Under the pieces are notes generated by a model that was not told the DNA's origin, ran no database searches, and saw nothing but the letters and a program-made list of their open reading frames with translations. Shown here piece after piece: positions 25,383 through 61,908 of a DNA stretch of 64,000 bases (positions within the stretch are counted from its first letter, which is position 1; every line of letters starts with the position of its first letter). The translations under genes were made by a program, and so were the position numbers. The stretch is from a bacterium. Its GTDB lineage: Bacteria; Patescibacteriota; Minisyncoccia; Phycocordibacterales; UBA5272. The DNA lies in contig JAIXVU010000002.1 of assembly GCA_027482685.1 (NCBI GenBank), positions 19,352 through 83,351 on the forward strand, read 5' to 3'.

Positions 25383-26423
25383 TTAGCGTTTCGGTAAAAT
25401 ATTATTAATATTTTGCACGAGTCCTTGTGTCTCATAATTTCCAACCGAAAGCCATGTAGGTAGTCCAAGTACACAAAGTCCAGATGTATCCTTTGCGAGA
25501 GCTATACCTCCTGAGTTACCGTTGTCTATTTTTGCAGAGACGAAGTAGTTACCATCACCAGCTTGAGATGTATCATATCCTGAGATGATACCATTTGTTA
25601 CTGTTCTATAGACAACATTAAATGTACCAAGTCCTTCTATGGTTATTTTACTATCACGTTTAGCATATGCTGGGAATCCTATAATAACAATTGGCGTACC
25701 AACAGGCATGAGAGATATACATTTTTTAATTTTCGGTATGCTGTAGTTATAGTTTGCAACGGGTAATGTATCAGATGTAAGTGATGAACCGATACTAAGC
25801 ACAGCAGAATCTGTTAATTGATTGTAACTATATACTGACCCCCGAATAGAGAATAATCCTATCGTTTTATTAGAATCATTAGTGATAGATGTTATACAGG
25901 TAGCACCGTCTTTTACAACATGGCGATTAGTTAAGATAGCATATGGGACATCAGGAAAATTATACAGCGCACCACTTCCGCTTGATATACTACCATCAGT
26001 ATTTTTACAAATAACCTGAACAATACCCGTTGTATATGGAGTAAGATCAGTTGATGAAATAACTATCTCTTTAGGTTTATTGGTTTCTTCTGTTATTTTT
26101 TGGCTTAAGACTTGAACATCTTTACTTGTTTTTGCAGCGAGGTCCGCTTGTAGAGCAGCATTACTTTTTGCTTGAGCTAGTTCGGTTTGTGCACGCATAA
26201 GAGCATCTTGTTGTTCGCGAAGTAGTTCTGCGGTTTTCTTTTCTTGAAGTTCTTTTTCACGAGCTTGGGCTTCTACTAATTGCTTCTGCAGTTCTTCAGT
26301 ATTAGATATTTTTGTATATAAGGTAAAAGAAACTGCTCCAAGTAATACGAGCAAGATAAGAATAACCCCAAACGCAACAAGGATGAATCTCCATGTAAAT
26401 GAAAGGGTGATACGTGTACGCAT
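25383..26423 (-). CDS. membrane-anchored trypsin-like serine protease (S1 family)
   Basis: Catalytic triad context TNRHVV (His), DSAVL (Asp), DNGNSGG (Ser); N-terminal TM helix. Start taken at the internal Met (MRTRITL) because the longer ORF overlaps the upstream rlmH. Confidence 0.55.
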   Translation of the reverse strand: MRTRITLSFTWRFILVAFGVILILLVLLGAVSFTLYTKISNTEELQKQLVEAQAREKELQEKKTAELLREQQDALMRAQTELAQAKSNAALQADLAAKTSKDVQVLSQKITEETNKPKEIVISSTDLTPYTTGIVQVICKNTDGSISSGSGALYNFPDVPYAILTNRHVVKDGATCITSITNDSNKTIGLFSIRGSVYSYNQLTDSAVLSIGSSLTSDTLPVANYNYSIPKIKKCISLMPVGTPIVIIGFPAYAKRDSKITIEGLGTFNVVYRTVTNGIISGYDTSQAGDGNYFVSAKIDNGNSGGIALAKDTSGLCVLGLPTWLSVGNYETQGLVQNINNILPKR

Positions 26424-26462
26424 AGTTGCTAAATACGGCTTTATATCGTACAGTGTATCATA

Positions 26463-26909
26463 ATGAAAATCATTATTATGACTGTTGGAAAAGACCGAGA
26501 TGATGTAACTGAGGATGCTGTGAAGCATTTTGCTATTCGTCTGATGAGATATCTTCCGCTTGAATGGGTCTACATTGAGCATAGTCAAACAAAAGAGAAA
26601 GAAGGGGAGAAAATACTCTCGTCAATAAAAAAAGAAGACTATGTTGTATTACTTGATGAAAGGGGCCAAGATATGAAAAGTGAGCAACTCGCTGAGCTTG
26701 TAGAAAATCGTATGGTGGACTCTGTGAAGCGTATGGTGTTTGTAGTCGGAGGCGCCTACGGCGCCTCCGACTCCGTCCACCTCCGTGCTAACTACACATG
26801 GAAGCTCTCATCACTAGTATTCCCACATATGCTTGTACGAGTTATCCTGGTTGAACAGCTCTATCGTGCCATGACGATATTGAAAGGCGAGAAGTATCAC
26901 CACGAGTAA
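26463..26909 (+). CDS. rlmH: 23S rRNA (pseudouridine1915-N3)-methyltransferase
   Basis: 148 aa; SPOUT RlmH pattern ...VVLLDERG...FVVGGAYG...FPHMLVRVILVEQLYRA. Confidence 0.8.
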   Translation: MKIIIMTVGKDRDDVTEDAVKHFAIRLMRYLPLEWVYIEHSQTKEKEGEKILSSIKKEDYVVLLDERGQDMKSEQLAELVENRMVDSVKRMVFVVGGAYGASDSVHLRANYTWKLSSLVFPHMLVRVILVEQLYRAMTILKGEKYHHE

Positions 26910-27644: not shown

Positions 27645-27812
27645 AGGGGAATAATTAATTAAGGTTAGTATAACATTTTATGTAAGAGAGTATGACCCCT
27701 ACGGGTCGCTACGTTTTACTACGCTCCTTGAGAACCCACGGTTCTCAACGTTCGTTGGTACACTCACTGCTCTCCTCTACGGAAAACTCTCGTTTTCCGA
27801 CCCTTTCCAATT

Positions 27813-27877
27813 CCGTGGGGTCATGAAATTAAAAGCACCATCATAATGATGGTGCTTTTAATTTCATGACCCCACGG
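27813..27877. repeat. perfect about 32-bp palindrome overlapping the tRNA-Glu 3' acceptor end (trailer hairpin / terminator)
   Basis: ccgtggggtcatgaaattaaaagcaccatcat / atgatggtgcttttaatttcatgaccccacgg; the right arm is the tRNA 3' strand. Confidence 0.7.
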
Positions 27878-27938
27878 AGAGTCGAACTCCGCTTACCGGC
27901 ATGAAAAGCCGGTGTCCTAACCGATAGACGATGGGGCC
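27867..27938 (-). tRNA. tRNA-Glu (anticodon TTC)
   Basis: Reverse complement GGCCCCATCGTCTATCGGTTAGGACACCGGCTTTTCATGCCGGTAAGCGGAGTTCGACTCTCCGTGGGGTCA folds as a cloverleaf (7-bp acceptor, anticodon loop TTTTCAT, T-loop TTCGACT); no encoded CCA. Confidence 0.8.
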
Positions 27939-28207
27939 CTATAATTCGCTTTGCGAATTCGGGCGACTATTTGCAATTAGCCCAAGCAAATAGTTTAGCA
28001 GTCCGTTGCTACTTTATAGACTAAAGTGCAGATACAATACTACCACATATTTTGTTATTTTGGAAGAGGTTTAGCGTTGCCTTTGTCTCTACTCTCATGT
28101 ATTATGTGTCAGGTGGTTCTTTTGTTTCTTAATACAATAACTAGATACGGTATAAGGTAATTCTTATCTATCTAGTAACATGGTCGCCTGTAAAATGTCG
28201 ACCAGAA

Positions 28208-28283
28208 GGGCGGTTAGCTCAGTTGGTAGAGCGCCACATTGACGTTGTGGATGTCAGAGGTTCGACTCCTCTATCGCCCACCA
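28208..28283 (+). tRNA. tRNA-Val (anticodon GAC), CCA encoded
   Basis: GGGCGGTTAGCTCAGTTGGTAGAGCGCCACATTGACGTTGTGGATGTCAGAGGTTCGACTCCTCTATCGCCCACCA; canonical cloverleaf, anticodon loop TTGACGT. Confidence 0.85.
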
Positions 28284-28339
28284 AAATTAAAATCTCACAT
28301 ATCGTACGGTATGTGAGATTTTAATTTTGGTGGGCGATA
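28272..28339. repeat. about 30-bp near-perfect palindrome that includes the tRNA-Val 3' end (tatcgcccacca...tggtgggcgata)
   Basis: tatcgcccaccaaaattaaaatctcacata / tatgtgagattttaattttggtgggcgata. Confidence 0.7.
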
Positions 28340-28376
28340 AGAAAGACGCTTGGGCGTCTTTCGTGAGGAGTCGAAC
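28327..28376 (+). repeat. direct repeat copy 1 (about 50 nt) flanking a GC-rich insert downstream of tRNA-Val
   Basis: TTGGtGGGCGATAAgAAAGACGCTTgGGCGTCTTTcgTGAGgAGTcGAA versus copy 2 at 29258-29307 (TTGGcGGGCGATAAaAAAGACGCTTaGGCGTCTTTttTGAGtAGTtGAA), about 85 % identity. Confidence 0.6.
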
Positions 28377-28596
28377 GAAAAAGCGGTCTACGAAAGTGAA
28401 CTGCAAAAATTGGATACAGTATTTTTGCGGTTCATTTTTGTCGCTTTTTATCGGGGTCGCGACTAGGAGATTTTGTTTGAGTCCAATGGAAGAAAAAGAA
28501 AATCCCTAGTGGTGACCGACTCCGCCTCAATTGCCTCGTTTCCGTGAAGGAGTCAGCTTTACTTTATACAAGATGATTGATATATAAGGTTTTAAA

Positions 28597-28640
28597 TTGA
28601 CATTGACAAAATATGAATTTAGTGTACACTATATATGTTA
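28597..28640 (+). promoter_or_regulatory. sigma70-like promoter candidate (tandem TTGACA ... TATATAT)
   Basis: ttgacattgacaaaatatgaatttagtgtacactatatat upstream of the GC-rich ORF at 28681. Confidence 0.3.
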
Positions 28641-28680
28641 GCTCATGATGAACCAGTTGCAGTTCTTTTGAAAGGTCTTT

Positions 28681-29041
28681 ATGACTCGCAGCAGCTTCGA
28701 TGATGTGCACCTTGAAACAGATGCACATTTCAACGATCTTGGGCCACAAGGAGAAAAGGCTCTCGGTTTGGTGGTAGGGTTGATGCCTCACTTCGGTGCC
28801 GGCCACCCTGACCTTCTCCGCAAGAGAATGCTCTTTCGAACTCTTGGTGCTCAGTCTGGCCACTCAAGATCCCTTGAGGGGTGTTCTGACAAGCCATGAC
28901 CCGAAGTCACTTCCTTCGAAGGCGCTCTACTTCCTCGGCCTTTATAAGAGGGCTGTGGAATCGAATGTCGATGACATCGGAGTGCTGTGCGAAATAGTGA
29001 CCAAGGACGACGATAGGCTTCGCACTTATTTGTTTCGCTAG
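28681..29041 (+). pseudogene. GC-rich frameshifted ORF pair (foreign gene remnant)
   Basis: Two overlapping + ORFs in different frames (28681-28899, 28796-29041) within a high-GC segment; no recognisable domain; competing antisense ORFs (GC artefacts). Confidence 0.3.
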
Positions 29042-29186
29042 GCAACAAGTTGGTGCTTCATTGAGCAGTGCTTTACGGGCAGGTCGAAAGACCTGCTCGT
29101 TTTCTATTTCAAAACCTTCCCCCCTTTTCAACTACTCGCTAAACTTAATAATATACTCTAAAAATATATTTAATTTCTCATAATCT

Positions 29187-29216
29187 GGTTCGATGTGTAT
29201 CCTCGATTCCCCACCA
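29187..29216 (+). repeat. degenerate partial copy of the tRNA-Val 3' half (T-arm/acceptor)
   Basis: GGTTCGAtgtgtatCCTCgaTtCCCCACCA compared with tRNA-Val GGTTCGACTCCTCTATCGCCCACCA. Precedes direct repeat copy 2. Confidence 0.45.
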
Positions 29217-29257
29217 GATACAAAATGGCGAAGTCGTATGACTTCGAATTTTTTTAT

Positions 29258-29307
29258 TTGGCGGGCGATAAAAAAGACGCTTAGGCGTCTTTTTTGAGTA
29301 GTTGAAT
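29258..29307 (+). repeat. direct repeat copy 2 (see 28327-28376) including a terminator hairpin aaaagacgcttaggcgtctttttt
   Basis: See copy 1. Confidence 0.6.
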
Positions 29308-29350
29308 AAGAGACTCCTTTGTTATTAATTACAAGTGATATAATTAACAT

Positions 29351-30049
29351 ATGACCCAAAAAATCCCCGCACACGATAGATACCTCGCATCTCACTCGTG
29401 GCTCTCTACATACCATCTCTTTTCATTTGCTGATTATTTCGATCCAGATAATATGAACTTCGGAGCACTCCGAGTGTTCAATGATGATACGATAGATGGA
29501 CGAAGTGGATTCGGTCAGCATGGGCACAGAGATATGGAGATAGTGACTATCGTTTTAAGTGGTGAGTTAACTCATACAGACAGTATGGGTAACAGCGGGG
29601 TGATAAAGGCAGGAGAGGTACAGTATATGAGTGCAGGGATAGGCGTGATGCATAGTGAAGTAAATAATGGTGATGAACAGGTACACCTCTACCAAATATG
29701 GATAATGCCGAAAAGCAAAAATCTACAACCAAGTTATGGACAGAAAGATTTTACAGGCATTAAAGAGAAGAATATTCTTGTACCGGTTGTGTCAGATAAA
29801 CAGATTGGTCAGGCGATACAGATACAAGCGGATGCGACTATCTATCTAAGTGAGTTAGAGGCCAGTAAAAAGATTGCTTATGAGTTACAGAGTGGAAGAG
29901 GGTTGTTCGTATATGTTACAGAAGGAGCGATAATTATTAACGCAGCAGAGTTTGCAGCTGGTGACCAAGCGAGAATAGTTGATGAAAAAGAGATACAGAT
30001 GATAGGGAAGATGGATGCAAAGTTCGTTGCGATAGATGTCGTTGTATAG
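29351..30049 (+). CDS. pirin-family cupin protein
   Basis: 232 aa; GFGQHGHRDMEIVTIVLSGELTHTDSMGN...VQYMSAGIGVMHSE matches the pirin N-terminal cupin motifs. Confidence 0.8.
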   Translation: MTQKIPAHDRYLASHSWLSTYHLFSFADYFDPDNMNFGALRVFNDDTIDGRSGFGQHGHRDMEIVTIVLSGELTHTDSMGNSGVIKAGEVQYMSAGIGVMHSEVNNGDEQVHLYQIWIMPKSKNLQPSYGQKDFTGIKEKNILVPVVSDKQIGQAIQIQADATIYLSELEASKKIAYELQSGRGLFVYVTEGAIIINAAEFAAGDQARIVDEKEIQMIGKMDAKFVAIDVVV

Positions 30050-30093: not shown

Positions 30094-30120
30094 ACACGCG
30101 ACCCCGAAGGGGTCGCGTGT
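30094..30120. terminator. bidirectional GC hairpin (acacgcgaccc-cgaa-gggtcgcgtgt)
   Basis: Perfect 11-bp stem between convergent genes. Confidence 0.55.
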
Positions 30121-30452: not shown

Positions 30453-31967
30453 TTACACTCCTCGTAGCACAGTAATCTTCGCACCGATACTGTTGAGACG
30501 TTCTGCAATATCAGCATATCCACGTTTGATAGAGTAGACATTGTGTAGCATGCTCGTACCTTCTGCTCCTAACATCGCAATTAATATAATAGCAGTTGGC
30601 CTAAGTGCTGGAGGGGATACAATCTGTGAGCCACGTAACTTAGATACACCTGTAACGAGCGCACGATGCGGATCAAGGAGTTTGATATCTGCTCCGAGAC
30701 GATTCAGTTCTGTGAAATATATTGCGCGGTTCTCCCATGTCCAATCGTGAATAAGAGTCTGACCCTCTGCAAAACATGCAATAGGAACGAAGAAGGGGAG
30801 ATTGTCGTTATTGATCCCTGGGAATGGCTGGGTATGTATCTTATCTGTTGGTGCTACAAGTTTAGACGGACTCACTGTTATATCCACGAGTTCTGTACGG
30901 CCATTCTTAGCGAAGTATTTCTTGGATAATTTATATTTGAGTCCCATGCGTTTTAGCTTCTCTAGCTCAAGTGTGAGGAACATAATAGGACATCTCATGA
31001 TAGTGAGTTTGGATTTTGTAACTATTGCAGCGGATAAGAAGAACATGCTCTCTATTGGGTCTTCACTATTATAGTGTTCAACATTTACATCAATATCTTT
31101 CTTGCCATGAACGGTAAGCGTAGTAGTTCCGATACCATCGATTCGCACCCCAAACCGTTCAAGTAAGAAACATACATCTTGTACTTGGTAGTTAGGCGGT
31201 GCAAACATGATAGTAGTTATACCTTCTATACGAGATGCTGCAATAATAGCCGTAATAGCGCCAGTATCTGATGACTCATAGAGAGGGATGGTACCAGCGT
31301 GTAACTTCTTGTGTGAAATAACGTAGTGGTCGGACTTGGTAACGATATTCACTCCTAGATATTCCAGAGCGTACTTGTGTGATGAGACAGTTCTCTCGCC
31401 CATCTTGCACCCGCCAGAGTGTGGGAGGTGGAATGTGTCAGTATTGTGAATGAATGCACCAACGAATGTAAAAGAGCGAATCTTCTCTGCAACAGCTTTA
31501 TTCATTTTTGAAAAAGCTAGTTTCTTCGGGGGTTTGATCTCAAGAGAAGTATCGTCGTTAATCCATTTTATCTTAACGCCTAGACTCTCAAGGAGTTCCT
31601 TGTATCTATAGACCTCTTCGATATGTGGAATGTCATGGAGAATAGTGGTGCCAGAGTTCACAAGTGCGGCTACCATCATGTTAATCGCTCCATTTTTGGA
31701 GGTGTTGGTTGTGATACTGCCTGATAACTTACGTCCACCTTCAACTTTGAAGTCAATAGTATCCTGGAGACTGATGATGTTATGTTTGAGAACATCACTC
31801 ATCTTGAGTAGTTGCTCAACTGTTACATTTTGGTTGCCAGACTCTACACGAGCGACAGCTGATTGTGAGGTCTTGAGTGAACGAGCAAAGTCTTCTTGGG
31901 TCATGCCACGTTCTTCACGGAGCTTTTTAATAAAAATACCTATTTTCTCTTGGTCATTTGGTGGCAT
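30453..31967 (-). CDS. murA: UDP-N-acetylglucosamine 1-carboxyvinyltransferase with N-terminal XRE-family HTH domain (HTH-MurA fusion)
   Basis: 504 aa; residues about 1-75 are an XRE HTH (MTQEDFARSLKTSQSAVARVESGNQNVTVEQLLKMSDVL). The remainder aligns to MurA (FKVEGGRKLSGSITTNTSKNGAINMMVAAL; LPHSGGCKMGERTVSSH with the catalytic Cys; C-terminal RGYADIAERLNSIGAKITVL). Confidence 0.75.
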   Translation of the reverse strand: MPPNDQEKIGIFIKKLREERGMTQEDFARSLKTSQSAVARVESGNQNVTVEQLLKMSDVLKHNIISLQDTIDFKVEGGRKLSGSITTNTSKNGAINMMVAALVNSGTTILHDIPHIEEVYRYKELLESLGVKIKWINDDTSLEIKPPKKLAFSKMNKAVAEKIRSFTFVGAFIHNTDTFHLPHSGGCKMGERTVSSHKYALEYLGVNIVTKSDHYVISHKKLHAGTIPLYESSDTGAITAIIAASRIEGITTIMFAPPNYQVQDVCFLLERFGVRIDGIGTTTLTVHGKKDIDVNVEHYNSEDPIESMFFLSAAIVTKSKLTIMRCPIMFLTLELEKLKRMGLKYKLSKKYFAKNGRTELVDITVSPSKLVAPTDKIHTQPFPGINNDNLPFFVPIACFAEGQTLIHDWTWENRAIYFTELNRLGADIKLLDPHRALVTGVSKLRGSQIVSPPALRPTAIILIAMLGAEGTSMLHNVYSIKRGYADIAERLNSIGAKITVLRGV

Positions 31968-47472: not shown

Positions 47473-47538
47473 GGGCGGAGAAATGGAACGTAAAAAAGTC
47501 GGCATACGCCGACTTTTTTACGTTCCATTTCTCCGCCC
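47473..47538. terminator. 31-bp perfect palindrome terminator (gggcggagaaatggaacgtaaaaaagtcggc-atac-gccgacttttttacgttccatttctccgccc)
   Basis: Verified arm by arm; contains internal T/A runs. Confidence 0.65.
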
Positions 47539-61494: not shown

Positions 61495-61565
61495 GGGCCT
61501 ATAGTTTAGTGGCAGAACAACAGTCTCCAAAACTGTTGGTCGAGGTTCGATTCCTCGTGGGCCCG
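61495..61565 (+). tRNA. tRNA-Trp (anticodon CCA)
   Basis: GGGCCTATAGTTTAGTGGCAGAACAACAGTCTCCAAAACTGTTGGTCGAGGTTCGATTCCTCGTGGGCCCG; anticodon loop CTCCAAA; 7-bp acceptor stem including a T-G pair. Confidence 0.8.
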
Positions 61566-61620
61566 CAAAAAAGTAAAAGCAGTATCATTTGATACTGCTT
61601 TTACTTTTTTGCGGGCCCAC
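61557..61620. repeat. 31-bp perfect palindrome that includes the tRNA-Trp 3' end (gtgggcccgcaaaaaagtaaaagcagtatca / tgatactgcttttacttttttgcgggcccac)
   Basis: Verified arm by arm. Confidence 0.7.
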
Positions 61621-61908
61621 AGAAAGTGAACTGCTTCACTTTCGTGAGGAATCGAATAGGGGTCGCGAAATTGCTTCGAGCGAAGCGAGGCAGATTTGTG
61701 ACCGATTTCTCGTTTATTTCATTCTCGGTGACCGAACTTCCTCGGGGGGGGTTAGCTATGTTTTTCTAGCAAGAAAAACGAGCGAGCCGTGGCCTGCGAG
61801 TTTCTTGAGCGACGGCGAAAGAAAACTTGTAGGAGATTCCTCGTGAACTTCTGTTATCATTAGTTATCAACACGGCGCTTTTCTCATACACCTATATACT
61901 ACTACTAT

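Follow-up and report, generated by a model that had tools for sequence, protein, structure and literature searches.

Stacked tRNA-tail modules, possibly with a small foreign gene cassette between their layers, at a tRNA-Val gene of a Patescibacteria genome

Tyrosine-integrase islands reportedly enter tRNA genes at T-loop, anticodon-loop or 3'-end sublocations, a scheme attributed to Williams (Nucleic Acids Res, 2002). The cis-mobilisable elements of streptococci derive from integrative and conjugative elements (ICEs), have no recombinase, are flanked by att sites and accrete in tandem at such sites, and downstream of the tyrT gene of Escherichia coli there are repeats of 178-bp units, each including the last ~19 nt of tRNA-Tyr. 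In a survey of tRNA-gene islands, the repeats measured 15-221 bp and often started in the T loop, and the islands were 3.5 kb or more in size (10.1101/2020.11.02.365908). Here we analyse the interval between a tRNA-Val(GAC) gene and a pirin gene in a stretch of 64,000 nt (the window; contig JAIXVU010000002.1, positions 19,352 to 83,351, of assembly GCA_027482685.1) from a bacterium of the Patescibacteriota. A preliminary description had taken the ~0.9 kb behind tRNA-Val for a decayed element integrated into the 3' end of the tRNA gene and bounded by attL- and attR-like direct repeats, from which the integrase and the cargo had been lost. The repeats themselves were confirmed and this interpretation was supported in part, but the more interesting result was the family to which the repeated units belong, a unit of ~190-260 nt located at the 3' end of tRNA genes, which we call the tRNA-tail module. 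Our favoured explanation, to which we assign a probability of about 0.5, is that tRNA-tail modules accumulated one upon another between tRNA-Val and pirin and that a small foreign gene cassette became enclosed between layers.

The modules resemble the tyrosine-integrase islands of tRNA genes in that the repeat is the 3' part of the tRNA from the T loop, the tRNA gene is left intact and the old 3' end is kept downstream; they are also variably present among relatives, and repeated use of one tRNA stacks layers. In contrast to such islands, they measure ~0.2 kb (0.9 kb with the orphan gene described below), no integrase was found nearby, and each module includes its target in inverted copy, along with a palindromic terminator and hairpins that covary; furthermore, they are present at most tRNA genes of a genome, behind many tRNA species, and have one core in common. 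With the cis-mobilisable elements they share their small size, the lack of a recombinase, att-like repeat borders and a tandem arrangement at one tRNA-type site, but those elements are remnants of identifiable ICEs with a known integrase, whereas neither a parent nor an enzyme was identified for the modules, and their repeat is structured. The tyrT repeats are similar in forming tandem units after a tRNA gene, each with a direct copy of the tRNA 3' end; unlike the modules, they constitute a single locus, without an inverted copy and without a core common to other tRNAs.

A repeat finder recovered the direct repeats as 28319-28375 and 29250-29306, with 82% identity over 57 nt and no gaps. The 50-nt copies of the preliminary description (28327-28376 and 29258-29307), given there as about 85% identical, agreed at 42 of 50 positions (84%). 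The local alignment of these two stretches, hereafter copy 1 and copy 2, scored 68, compared with 18.5 ± 2.5 and a maximum of 30 in 500 dinucleotide shuffles (z ~20); the next best tile in the window, with a score of 31, was the tail of tRNA-Trp. A degenerate 3' end of tRNA-Val had also been reported just before copy 2, and it was found to match 28267-28283 at 14 of 17 positions (29200-29216), with a GGTTCGA 6 nt further upstream in copy 2; the repeat finder extended this match to 28267-28293 and 29200-29226 (74% over 27 nt). Although this tRNA-like 17-mer match is by itself only modestly significant, having been reached in 9 of 1,000 shuffles, it is collinear with the main repeat and the spacings of the two are 933 and 931 nt, respectively, indicating that both matches are parts of one repeated unit of ~125-135 nt (28257-28376 and 29185-29307). 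Two separate assemblies (L081 from SRR16126875 and L178 from SRR16126876) showed 100% identity over 27849-29414, so neither the arrangement nor the frameshift described below is an artefact of a single assembly. That copy 1 and copy 2 represent two generations of one tail element is, in our estimate, about an even bet.

A module opens with the tRNA 3' end, which runs from the T-loop CGA as far as the discriminator or the CCA. A terminator-like palindromic hairpin flanked by A/T (hp1) comes next, and then two inverted segments separated by a side hairpin of 25 nt (hp2), the first complementary to the acceptor 3' strand and the second to the T stem and T loop. Downstream lie a conserved core, TCGAATA-GGGGTCGCGA-hp3-TTGTGAC, which includes a further hairpin (hp3), and finally the tRNA 3' end again in direct orientation, displaced and starting once more at CGA. 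A 25-base search pattern (TCGAATAGGGGTCGCGA N20-50 GTGACCGA), drawn from the three clean cores of the window tRNA-Trp, L123 and L124, matched 45 metagenome loci, with a chance expectation that we estimated as <1. In 30 out of 49 instances ARAGORN called a tRNA on the same strand within 400 nt upstream of the motif, 27 of these 30 ending 61-111 nt before it, and the tRNAs involved covered 11 specificities (Glu, Trp, Cys, Val, Lys, Arg, Ile, Thr, Ser, Pro and Gln). The architecture was constant across the printed loci: the palindrome, made up of a hairpin between an A-rich and a T-rich spacer, was followed by the acceptor complement, a 25-nt hairpin with a CTGC loop and the T-stem complement, and then by TCGAATAGGGGTCGCGA, a hairpin belonging to one of 3-4 sequence classes, TTGTGAC, and CGA with the direct copy of T stem and acceptor. 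This direct copy was perfect in L137, L141, L143 and L156 and near-perfect in L146 and L128, and in L170 it extended into the spacer and hairpin. An inverted T arm occurred within 130 nt of 44 of the 68 tRNAs in module contigs versus 2 of the 27 tRNAs in other loci, and tails with other cores exist at tRNAs for Leu, Gly and His. When Rfam 15 was applied at permissive E-values to the window and four clean modules, only tRNAs and spurious weak palindrome matches were returned; ARAGORN did not call the module as a tRNA, and we found no description of the family in the literature on tRNA-linked repeats or structured RNAs in Patescibacteria. Within 3.5 kb of the 49 modules no recombinase family recurred, the neighbours being syntenic housekeeping genes only, and an 18-base core pattern gave 38 matches in viral contigs, approximately the chance expectation by our own estimate.

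The interval 28263-29326 can be assigned to layers of such modules, an assignment that is partly inferential. The last 21 nt of the tRNA-Val gene (28208-28283, +; CCA encoded; ARAGORN, and 67.7 bits with the Rfam tRNA model), from the CGA of the T loop to the CCA, constitute the 3' end that belongs to copy 1 (28263-28283, +). The last 12 nt of the tRNA, namely the acceptor 3' strand and CCA, begin the left arm of hp1 (28272-28339), a loopless palindrome of 34+34 nt with 97% complementarity, whose inner part is terminator-like (stem TCTCACATA, then TTTTAATTTT) and whose right arm closes with TGGTGGGCGATA (28328-28339), which is complementary to the acceptor 3' strand and CCA. Exactly between the acceptor-strand and T-stem complements lies hp2 (28340-28364, +), a 25-nt side hairpin AGAAAGACGC-TTGG-GCGTCTTTCGT, and after it comes T', GAGGAGTCGAAC (28365-28376, +), which is the reverse complement of the T loop and T-stem 3' strand (28260-28271) at 12 of 12 positions. 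The module is then split, between TCGAA and its core, by a private 76-nt hairpin (28377-28452, +), which was absent from L123 and from 43 aligned modules and is locus-specific; it contains GAAAGTGAACTGC, a sequence present too in hp2 of the tRNA-Trp tail. The core, placed by the family alignment, occupies 28453-28519 (+) and consists of GGGGTCGCGA, the variable hp3 and TGGTGACCGA. At 28517-28535 (+; CGACTCCgccTCaATtGCC versus CGACTCCTCTATCGCC) the tRNA-Val 3' end is repeated in direct orientation, partly decayed, and this copy corresponds in place and type to the third copy seen in the 43 modules. The fold of the whole tRNA-Val tail had a z of -15, and a covariance model of the module matched the left part of copy 1 (28327-28448) with 25.6 bits (E 2e-4). 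Immediately downstream, 28536-28557 (+; TCGTTTCCGT GAAGGAG TCAGC) resembles the end of hp2 (CTTTCGT) followed by T' and TCGAA, and to judge from this resemblance it may be the remnant of an older module; its motif recurs in the tRNA-Glu tail as TTTCCGTAGAGGAG. The interior of the segment bracketed by the two copies opens with ~180 nt of module parts (28377-28557).

On the pirin side, the first recognisable fragment, piece A (TTCAACTACTC; 29127-29137, +), is presumably a decayed direct copy of the T loop and T-stem 3' strand, and it is the exact complement of the T' of copy 2 (29296-29306), two substitutions being matched on both sides. Piece B (29187-29216, +), the partial tRNA of the preliminary description, is a degenerate version of tRNA-Val from the T loop to the CCA (GGTTCGA tgtgta TCCTC GATTCCCCACCA). 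The hp1 of copy 2, CGAAGTCGTATGACTTCG (29229-29246), is flanked by A and T runs and terminator-like on both strands, and its stem is unrelated in sequence to the hp1 stem of copy 1. The right arm (29258-29308, +) consists of the acceptor complement TTTGGCGGGCGATA, hp2 (AAAAAGACGC-TTAG-GCGTCTTTTTT), T' (GAGTAGTTGAA) and TA. Both Val copies, then, present in the same order the acceptor complement, the 25-nt side hairpin and the T-arm complement with TCGAA, the loop of hp2 being TTGG and TTAG, respectively, versus CTGC in the family. The TTGTGACCGA-ended core with its direct copy of the T-stem 3' strand is present in copy 1, where the 76-nt hairpin separates it from TCGAA, and is missing from copy 2, which reads TA-AGA-GACTCC in place of GGGGTCGCGA..GTGAC; here the covariance model gave a match of 16.2 bits (29258-29331; E 0.055). 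The region 29312-29350 (+), compared by eye, is homologous to the stretch GACTCCTTCTTATTATC...ATG of L123; it comprises GACTCCTTTGTTATT (29312-29326), possibly the oldest displaced remnant, and the upstream region of the pirin gene (29351-30049, +; Pfam PF02678, 1.9e-35), which is the conserved right flank of the locus.

Tails of one design were carried by all three tRNA genes that ARAGORN found in the window, Glu (27867-27938, -), Val (28208-28283, +) and Trp (61495-61566, +). The tail of tRNA-Trp(CCA) is a complete module (61495-61751 with the tRNA, +; 101.6 bits), with palindrome, acceptor complement, hp2 AGAAAGTGAACTGCTTCACTTTCGT, T' GAGGAATCGAA and a core at 61652-61705; it has GGGGTCGCGA ... 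GTGACCGA in common with the Val tail and ends with two successive decayed direct copies, each behind a GTGACCGA. tRNA-Glu(TTC) and its tail (27796-27938, -) include a perfect palindrome of 33+33 nt with a 1-nt centre (27812-27878) that takes in the acceptor 3' strand; after a bulge, the tail ends in GGGTCGGA (27803-27796, -), which can pair with the T loop via G.U pairs. This tail is without the GGGGTCGCGA core and scored 24.5 bits. The matches of the covariance model within the window were the three tails, plus weak palindrome matches. A palindrome at 47481-47530, matched on both strands with 20.5 and 17.2 bits, is probably an unrelated terminator hairpin.

Tandem stacks of modules without cargo were observed at L131, L135, L138, L144, L165 and L166 as well as at the tRNA-Trp of the window. 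In L135, L144, L165, L166 and the window tRNA-Trp, the T loop and T stem recurred as two to four consecutive direct copies within 450 nt; in L131, two full cores were 140 nt apart, and in L138 the tRNA-Lys was followed by a partial module, then by a second 3' end that was a perfect copy, and lastly by a full module. These stacks indicated that direct repeats of a tRNA 3' end arise routinely in these genomes without any cargo. At the other sampled loci no gene was found between two layers of the same tRNA tail, and distant 3'-end copies turned out to be other tRNA genes or short tandem layers.

In L124 (5497-5680) a decayed second tRNA-Glu, part of which ARAGORN miscalled as tmRNA, lies just upstream of the functional tRNA-Glu and is broken in the T loop by module-like sequence, namely a side hairpin, GGTCGCGA ... 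TTGTGACCG and then GCTCTCCGTG. In L154 (1736-1900), and also in L148, inverted arms that match a Ser/Leu-like acceptor precede a direct copy, TTCCTCGTGG, and a T-arm complement, both of Trp type, ahead of a GAPDH orthologue; ARAGORN found no tRNA upstream of the L154 module, which looks like a chimera produced by recombination between the cores of different tRNA tails.

The closest relative found with the same synteny, L123 (74% identity for pirin and 91% for the MurA-like protein), is represented by a contig that opens at the palindrome centre with the right arm of the same hp1, the acceptor complement and a side hairpin with a different self-complementary stem, continues with GAGGAGTCGAA, TA, GGGGTCGCGA-hairpin-TGTGACCGA and CTCCTTCTTATTATC..., and reaches the ATG of pirin 155 nt from its start; its last 40 nt before pirin are homologous to 29312-29350 of the window. 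Since L123 has a single module followed by pirin, with no orphan gene and no second copy, the window carries ~0.8-0.9 kb extra. At a greater distance (61-65% pirin identity), L125, L126 and L176 have naive Val sites, in which ~60 nt of plain sequence separate tRNA-Val from pirin. L001 is naive for both Val and Glu, with tRNA-Glu 38 nt ahead of pirin, and in our own sequence comparison its tRNA-Val gene showed no differences from that of the window; in L173 and L174 other genes lie upstream of pirin. Presence at the tRNA-Val site therefore varies among relatives, which are themselves distant (61-74% pirin identity). The empty site anticipated by the preliminary description was found in L123 insofar as pirin comes right after a tail devoid of orphan gene and second copy, but this tail still keeps one module; the segment is absent from L123 and from the more distant relatives.

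The divergent tRNA-Glu/tRNA-Val pair was flipped relative to pirin among these relatives, the order being Val(-) Glu(+) pirin in L001 (5695-5963) and L124 (4844-5755) and Glu(-) Val(+) pirin in the window (27867-28283), L125 (5713-5940) and L126. The inversion of the pair could have been mediated by tail modules that flank it on either side in inverted orientation.

The GC-rich, frameshifted open reading frames (ORFs) noted earlier inside the segment proved to be a single gene with one +1 frameshift. The ORFs 28681-28899 and 28796-29041 are joined by removal of an extra C at 28837 (ATG CTC TTT C GAA CTC), and the repaired product of this orphan gene (28681-29041, +; 119 aa) aligned end to end with the intact 124-aa protein P0001 at 62% identity. 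Its G+C content is 52.1%, compared with 39.9 ± 4.8% for the window, a value reached by 2.3% of equal-sized windows. A promoter-like site, TTGACA-16-TACACT (28603-28630, +; 10 of 12 matches), a ribosome-binding site (GAAAGG) 7 nt ahead of the ATG, and an intrinsic-terminator-like hairpin (29075-29110, +; 11 pairs, 7 of them G-C, with a T run) that closes the cassette accompany the gene. It is a small gene with a promoter-like site and a terminator of its own and not the decayed cargo of a large element, and no fragment of an integrase was detected. Only two homologues, P0001 and P0122, were found among ~15 billion proteins: a word-indexed search of 5.8 billion clusters gave P0001 only, and a full HMMER pass over 1.84 billion representatives gave P0122 and the truncated ORF of the window itself. 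P0001 is encoded on a 951-nt contig without a tRNA and P0122 downstream of a ribosomal-protein gene, a putative rplO as read from the sequence; neither adjoins a tRNA, and both contexts are ordinary chromosomal ones. The promoter region is homologous to its L084 counterpart (77.5% over 40 nt, E 0.023). The ratio of nonsynonymous to synonymous changes (pN/pS) was 0.23 before and 0.36 after the frameshift, with saturated synonymous sites, indicating that the frameshift is either recent or bypassed. As a speculation, at CUC UUU C GAA (28828-28843) a re-pairing of tRNA-Phe from UUU to UUC before the CGA codon might permit a programmed +1 shift. No match to the orphan protein or its homologue was found in Pfam, PHROGs or PADLOC, viral contigs contained no relatives of the orphan protein, and BLAST of 28284-29350 against phage and plasmid collections gave no match. 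AlphaFold2, run on an alignment of two sequences, returned an all-helical model with a pLDDT of 54, too poor for a fold search.

The intact homologues in L084 (300-366, 760-890) and L177 (575-640, 1040-1160) have conserved untranslated stretches in common that the window copy lacks, CGGATyCCGGCcAAATAGGrATTTCTTT on the 5' side and GTAAGTGGCCArygAGCCGCTTGA ... CCTGTTGATGA ... CCAGGG on the 3' side. These stretches may be regulatory RNA elements.

In the explanation we favour, each module would act like a small non-autonomous insertion into the T loop/3' end of a tRNA gene, rather than arising in place. The insertion would restore the tRNA gene, push the old 3' end downstream and leave an att-like direct repeat of ~20 nt or more, and repeated entry at one tRNA would give tandem layers that later decay. 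The youngest layer at tRNA-Val would be copy 1 (28263-28535), and the older ones would be the remnant 28536-28557, piece A, piece B with copy 2 (29187-29308) and the remnant beside pirin. The orphan cassette (~28560-29126) could have arrived with one module generation or by recombination with foreign DNA bearing homologous tails, and the enzyme would presumably act in trans. Three origins can be envisaged for the inverted copy. The first is snap-back synthesis at the hp1 palindrome: such synthesis at palindromes yields a direct-inverted-direct arrangement of flanks (template switching, tandem inversion duplications), although, unlike an accident of template switching, the position of hp2 and the conserved core recur at dozens of tRNAs. 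The second is a staggered cut between the T loop and the end of the tRNA, with fill-in. The third is a folded single strand that would mimic the duplex target. Folded single-strand recombination sites are found in the attC of integrons and the attP of CTX phage, and the modules are similar to these in being imperfect palindromes with a bulged element on one arm whose folded strand would rebuild a duplex copy of the target; the arrangement of a short gene and then such a site also recalls an integron cassette. By contrast with attC, the T-loop GTTCGAC differs from the core GTTRRRY, the arms are in the opposite order, and no association with IntI or Xer was shown; we take the resemblance as a lead only.

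Several observations weigh against this explanation. The surroundings of the modules yielded no recombinase, transposase or reverse transcriptase, so that mobility is read from the pattern only. The naive sites come from relatives with 61-65% pirin identity and not from pairs of near-identical genomes. Copy 1 has hp1 in common with L123 but hp2 in common with copy 2, and as the copies are mosaic the order of events cannot be set with confidence; nor is the tRNA-proximal module of L138 obviously the younger one. A gene between layers occurs at no other sampled locus, which makes the 'cargo' a single case. Simple insertion does not explain how a tRNA-specific inverted copy would be carried into tRNAs of different identity, and, finally, presence at about two thirds of tRNAs together with selection on the hairpins fits a host function as well as a selfish element.

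The evidence for such selection came from an alignment (A3) of 43 pattern-selected modules and a structure that we proposed for it. The named structure was 84% paired, versus 68% in shuffles and ~40% in slid controls, and its covariation score was 0.49, compared with 0.21 in shuffles (reached by 0 of 500) and 0.10-0.16 in slid controls. In hp2, 97% of the cells were paired and 9 of 9 stem pairs covaried; the helix formed by the T-stem complement with the downstream direct copy (helix T) was 92% paired and the base of hp3 98%, whereas the acceptor complement and the downstream acceptor copy were only 53% paired. These values indicated maintenance of the hairpins and of the T-type helix; the distal part of the direct copy, by contrast, is decaying as neutral DNA would. 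Among the non-Watson-Crick pairs of hp3, G.U outnumbered A.C by 54 to 8, and the core helix has an invariant G.U; both favour folding of the tRNA-sense strand, bearing in mind that many pairs are inherited within subfamilies and that the search pattern had predetermined the core. Between the acceptor complement and the tRNA, pairing was unbiased (18 G.U versus 21 A.C). A similar count for the T arm, in the helix between tRNA and inverted copy, was discarded because one fixed core position dominates it.

These results bear on the main alternative, which we consider to have roughly half the weight of the stack of insertions: the tails would be parts of tRNA transcription units, as terminators with a structured 3' trailer or a tRNA-mimicking small RNA involved in processing, stability or the control of read-through. 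Template switching at palindromes, or else unequal recombination, would have duplicated the tails locally, and the orphan cassette would have entered independently. The tails at 3 of 3 window tRNAs and 44 of 68 tRNAs in related contigs, the compensatory changes that maintain hp2, helix T and hp3, and the G.U excess pointing to the sense strand are all in agreement with it. So is hp1, which with its A tract, G+C stem and T tract resembles a bidirectional intrinsic terminator, but a terminator at this position should stop most transcripts ahead of the module. Acceptor complement, hp2, helix T and direct copy could together fold as an acceptor/T minihelix with one side arm. Such a fold would be analogous to mascRNA, a tRNA-like structure at the 3' end of MALAT1 that serves as a processing signal, in that an acceptor/T-arm-like structure would lie in a longer transcript beside a processing site. 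Unlike mascRNA-type structures, however, the module has neither an Rfam match nor an ARAGORN call and its acceptor-like helix is poorly preserved, and the lack of G.U preference in the pairing of the acceptor complement with the tRNA also speaks against this alternative. Moreover, the close relatives L001, L125, L126 and L176 do without any tail, and the tRNA species that precedes a given core subfamily varies from contig to contig, so that the cores must have spread from one locus to another.

A classical island or prophage at the 3' end of tRNA-Val, with copies 1 and 2 as attL and attR and with the integrase and nearly all of the cargo deleted to leave 0.9 kb, seems to us unlikely. The features on which this interpretation was originally based are real: the direct repeats take in the displaced tRNA 3' end and begin at the T loop, a known sublocation of integration, an arrangement of the kind left behind by elements that insert at tRNA genes; the segment is absent from L123 and more distant relatives, and its interior has a higher G+C content than its surroundings and holds a frameshifted gene. 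But the module family makes such repeats at many tRNAs without cargo, and the repeated unit, with its palindrome, inverted copy and side hairpin, is structured in a way that the att sites of known islands are not. The interior of the segment begins with module parts (28377-28557) and not with island DNA. Neither integrase nor excisionase, nor a fragment of either, was found; no ORF of the interval 28327-29131 matched Pfam, PHROG or PADLOC, and a crude motif screen of the 64-kb window for a cognate tyrosine recombinase was negative, so the locus cannot be counted among the integrase islands. The lack of DNA similarity to phages or plasmids and of orphan-protein relatives in viral contigs, and the ordinary chromosomal contexts of the orphan-gene homologues, also speak against an island. 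That the repeats are a chance similarity or an assembly artefact of palindromic DNA, an idea suggested by short-read contigs (L081, L178, L083 and L123) that break exactly at palindrome centres, is hardly credible given the alignment z of ~20, the two further assemblies identical over the whole interval and the equal architecture of 45 loci from many unrelated assemblies.

Two ideas about the inverted copy were rejected. A retroelement-like primer-binding site for a mature tRNA does not agree with the tails of tRNAs without an encoded CCA, where the complement runs into the spacer and not into TGG. A convergent minus-strand tRNA or tRNA half was discarded as there is no 5' strand of the T stem or other tRNA part and ARAGORN was negative. 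Nor does the locus agree with an integron cassette with attC: the arms, GTTCGAC ... GTCGAAC, are in the wrong order, with one mismatch each, and no integrase was found at the locus or by the motif screen of the window. As for a MITE (miniature inverted-repeat transposable element) or insertion sequence, the inverted segments are tRNA-specific and the direct repeat, from ~20 to >45 nt, varies in length.

The neighbours of the interval are RlmH, TspO, DUF2256, pirin, Cdd1, HTH-MurA, Nramp and ABC. The gene order Wzy_C - TsaD - trypsin-like - RlmH - [variable] - tRNA-Glu/tRNA-Val - pirin - HTH-MurA-like - Nramp is also found in L001 and L123-L126, and the top species-level match of the window pirin is a Candidatus Nomurabacteria metagenome-assembled genome (61% identity). 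The HTH-MurA-like gene (30453-31967, -) encodes a helix-turn-helix (HTH) domain fused to an EPSP-synthase/MurA-like enzyme of 504 aa, with 77-91% identity across the relatives examined, far above that of the adjacent pirin. The longest ORF of the trypsin-like gene (25383-26588, -) runs 126 nt into the start of RlmH (26463-26909, +); its true start is probably further downstream, since alignments with relatives begin only at about residue 45-59. An inverted pair located between pirin and the Cdd1-like gene, GGGGTCGCGT / ACGCGACCCC (30096-30118), equals the core motif of the module at 9 of 10 bases and is probably a terminator.

Near-perfect palindromes of this kind break short-read assemblies right at tRNA genes, as in contigs of the same population that end at 27849, in the tRNA-Glu palindrome (L081 and L178), or at 29274 (L083). 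Since the repeats of the modules mimic att sites, island-finding tools and human readers alike will call false 'decayed islands' at these tRNAs. Somewhat short of an even chance, in our judgement, is the broader proposal that the modules are an undescribed class of tRNA-gene appendages in a clade of the Patescibacteria (Candidate Phyla Radiation, CPR), present on most tRNA genes and copying the tRNA 3' end in a direct-inverted-direct arrangement around a conserved core. They would be either a T-loop-targeting, target-regenerating mobile element, possibly one acting through a folded single strand that mimics a tRNA gene, or a tRNA-mimicking trailer RNA, and the present locus would be the first seen in which the layers hold a gene. 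If the modules are mobile, they would represent a compact, target-repairing system that recognises the T loop, the best conserved feature of tRNA genes, and what moves them and how the inverted copy is made would become the questions to ask. If they serve a function, a large group of uncultured bacteria with reduced genomes would express or mature its tRNAs with the help of an unannotated structured trailer.

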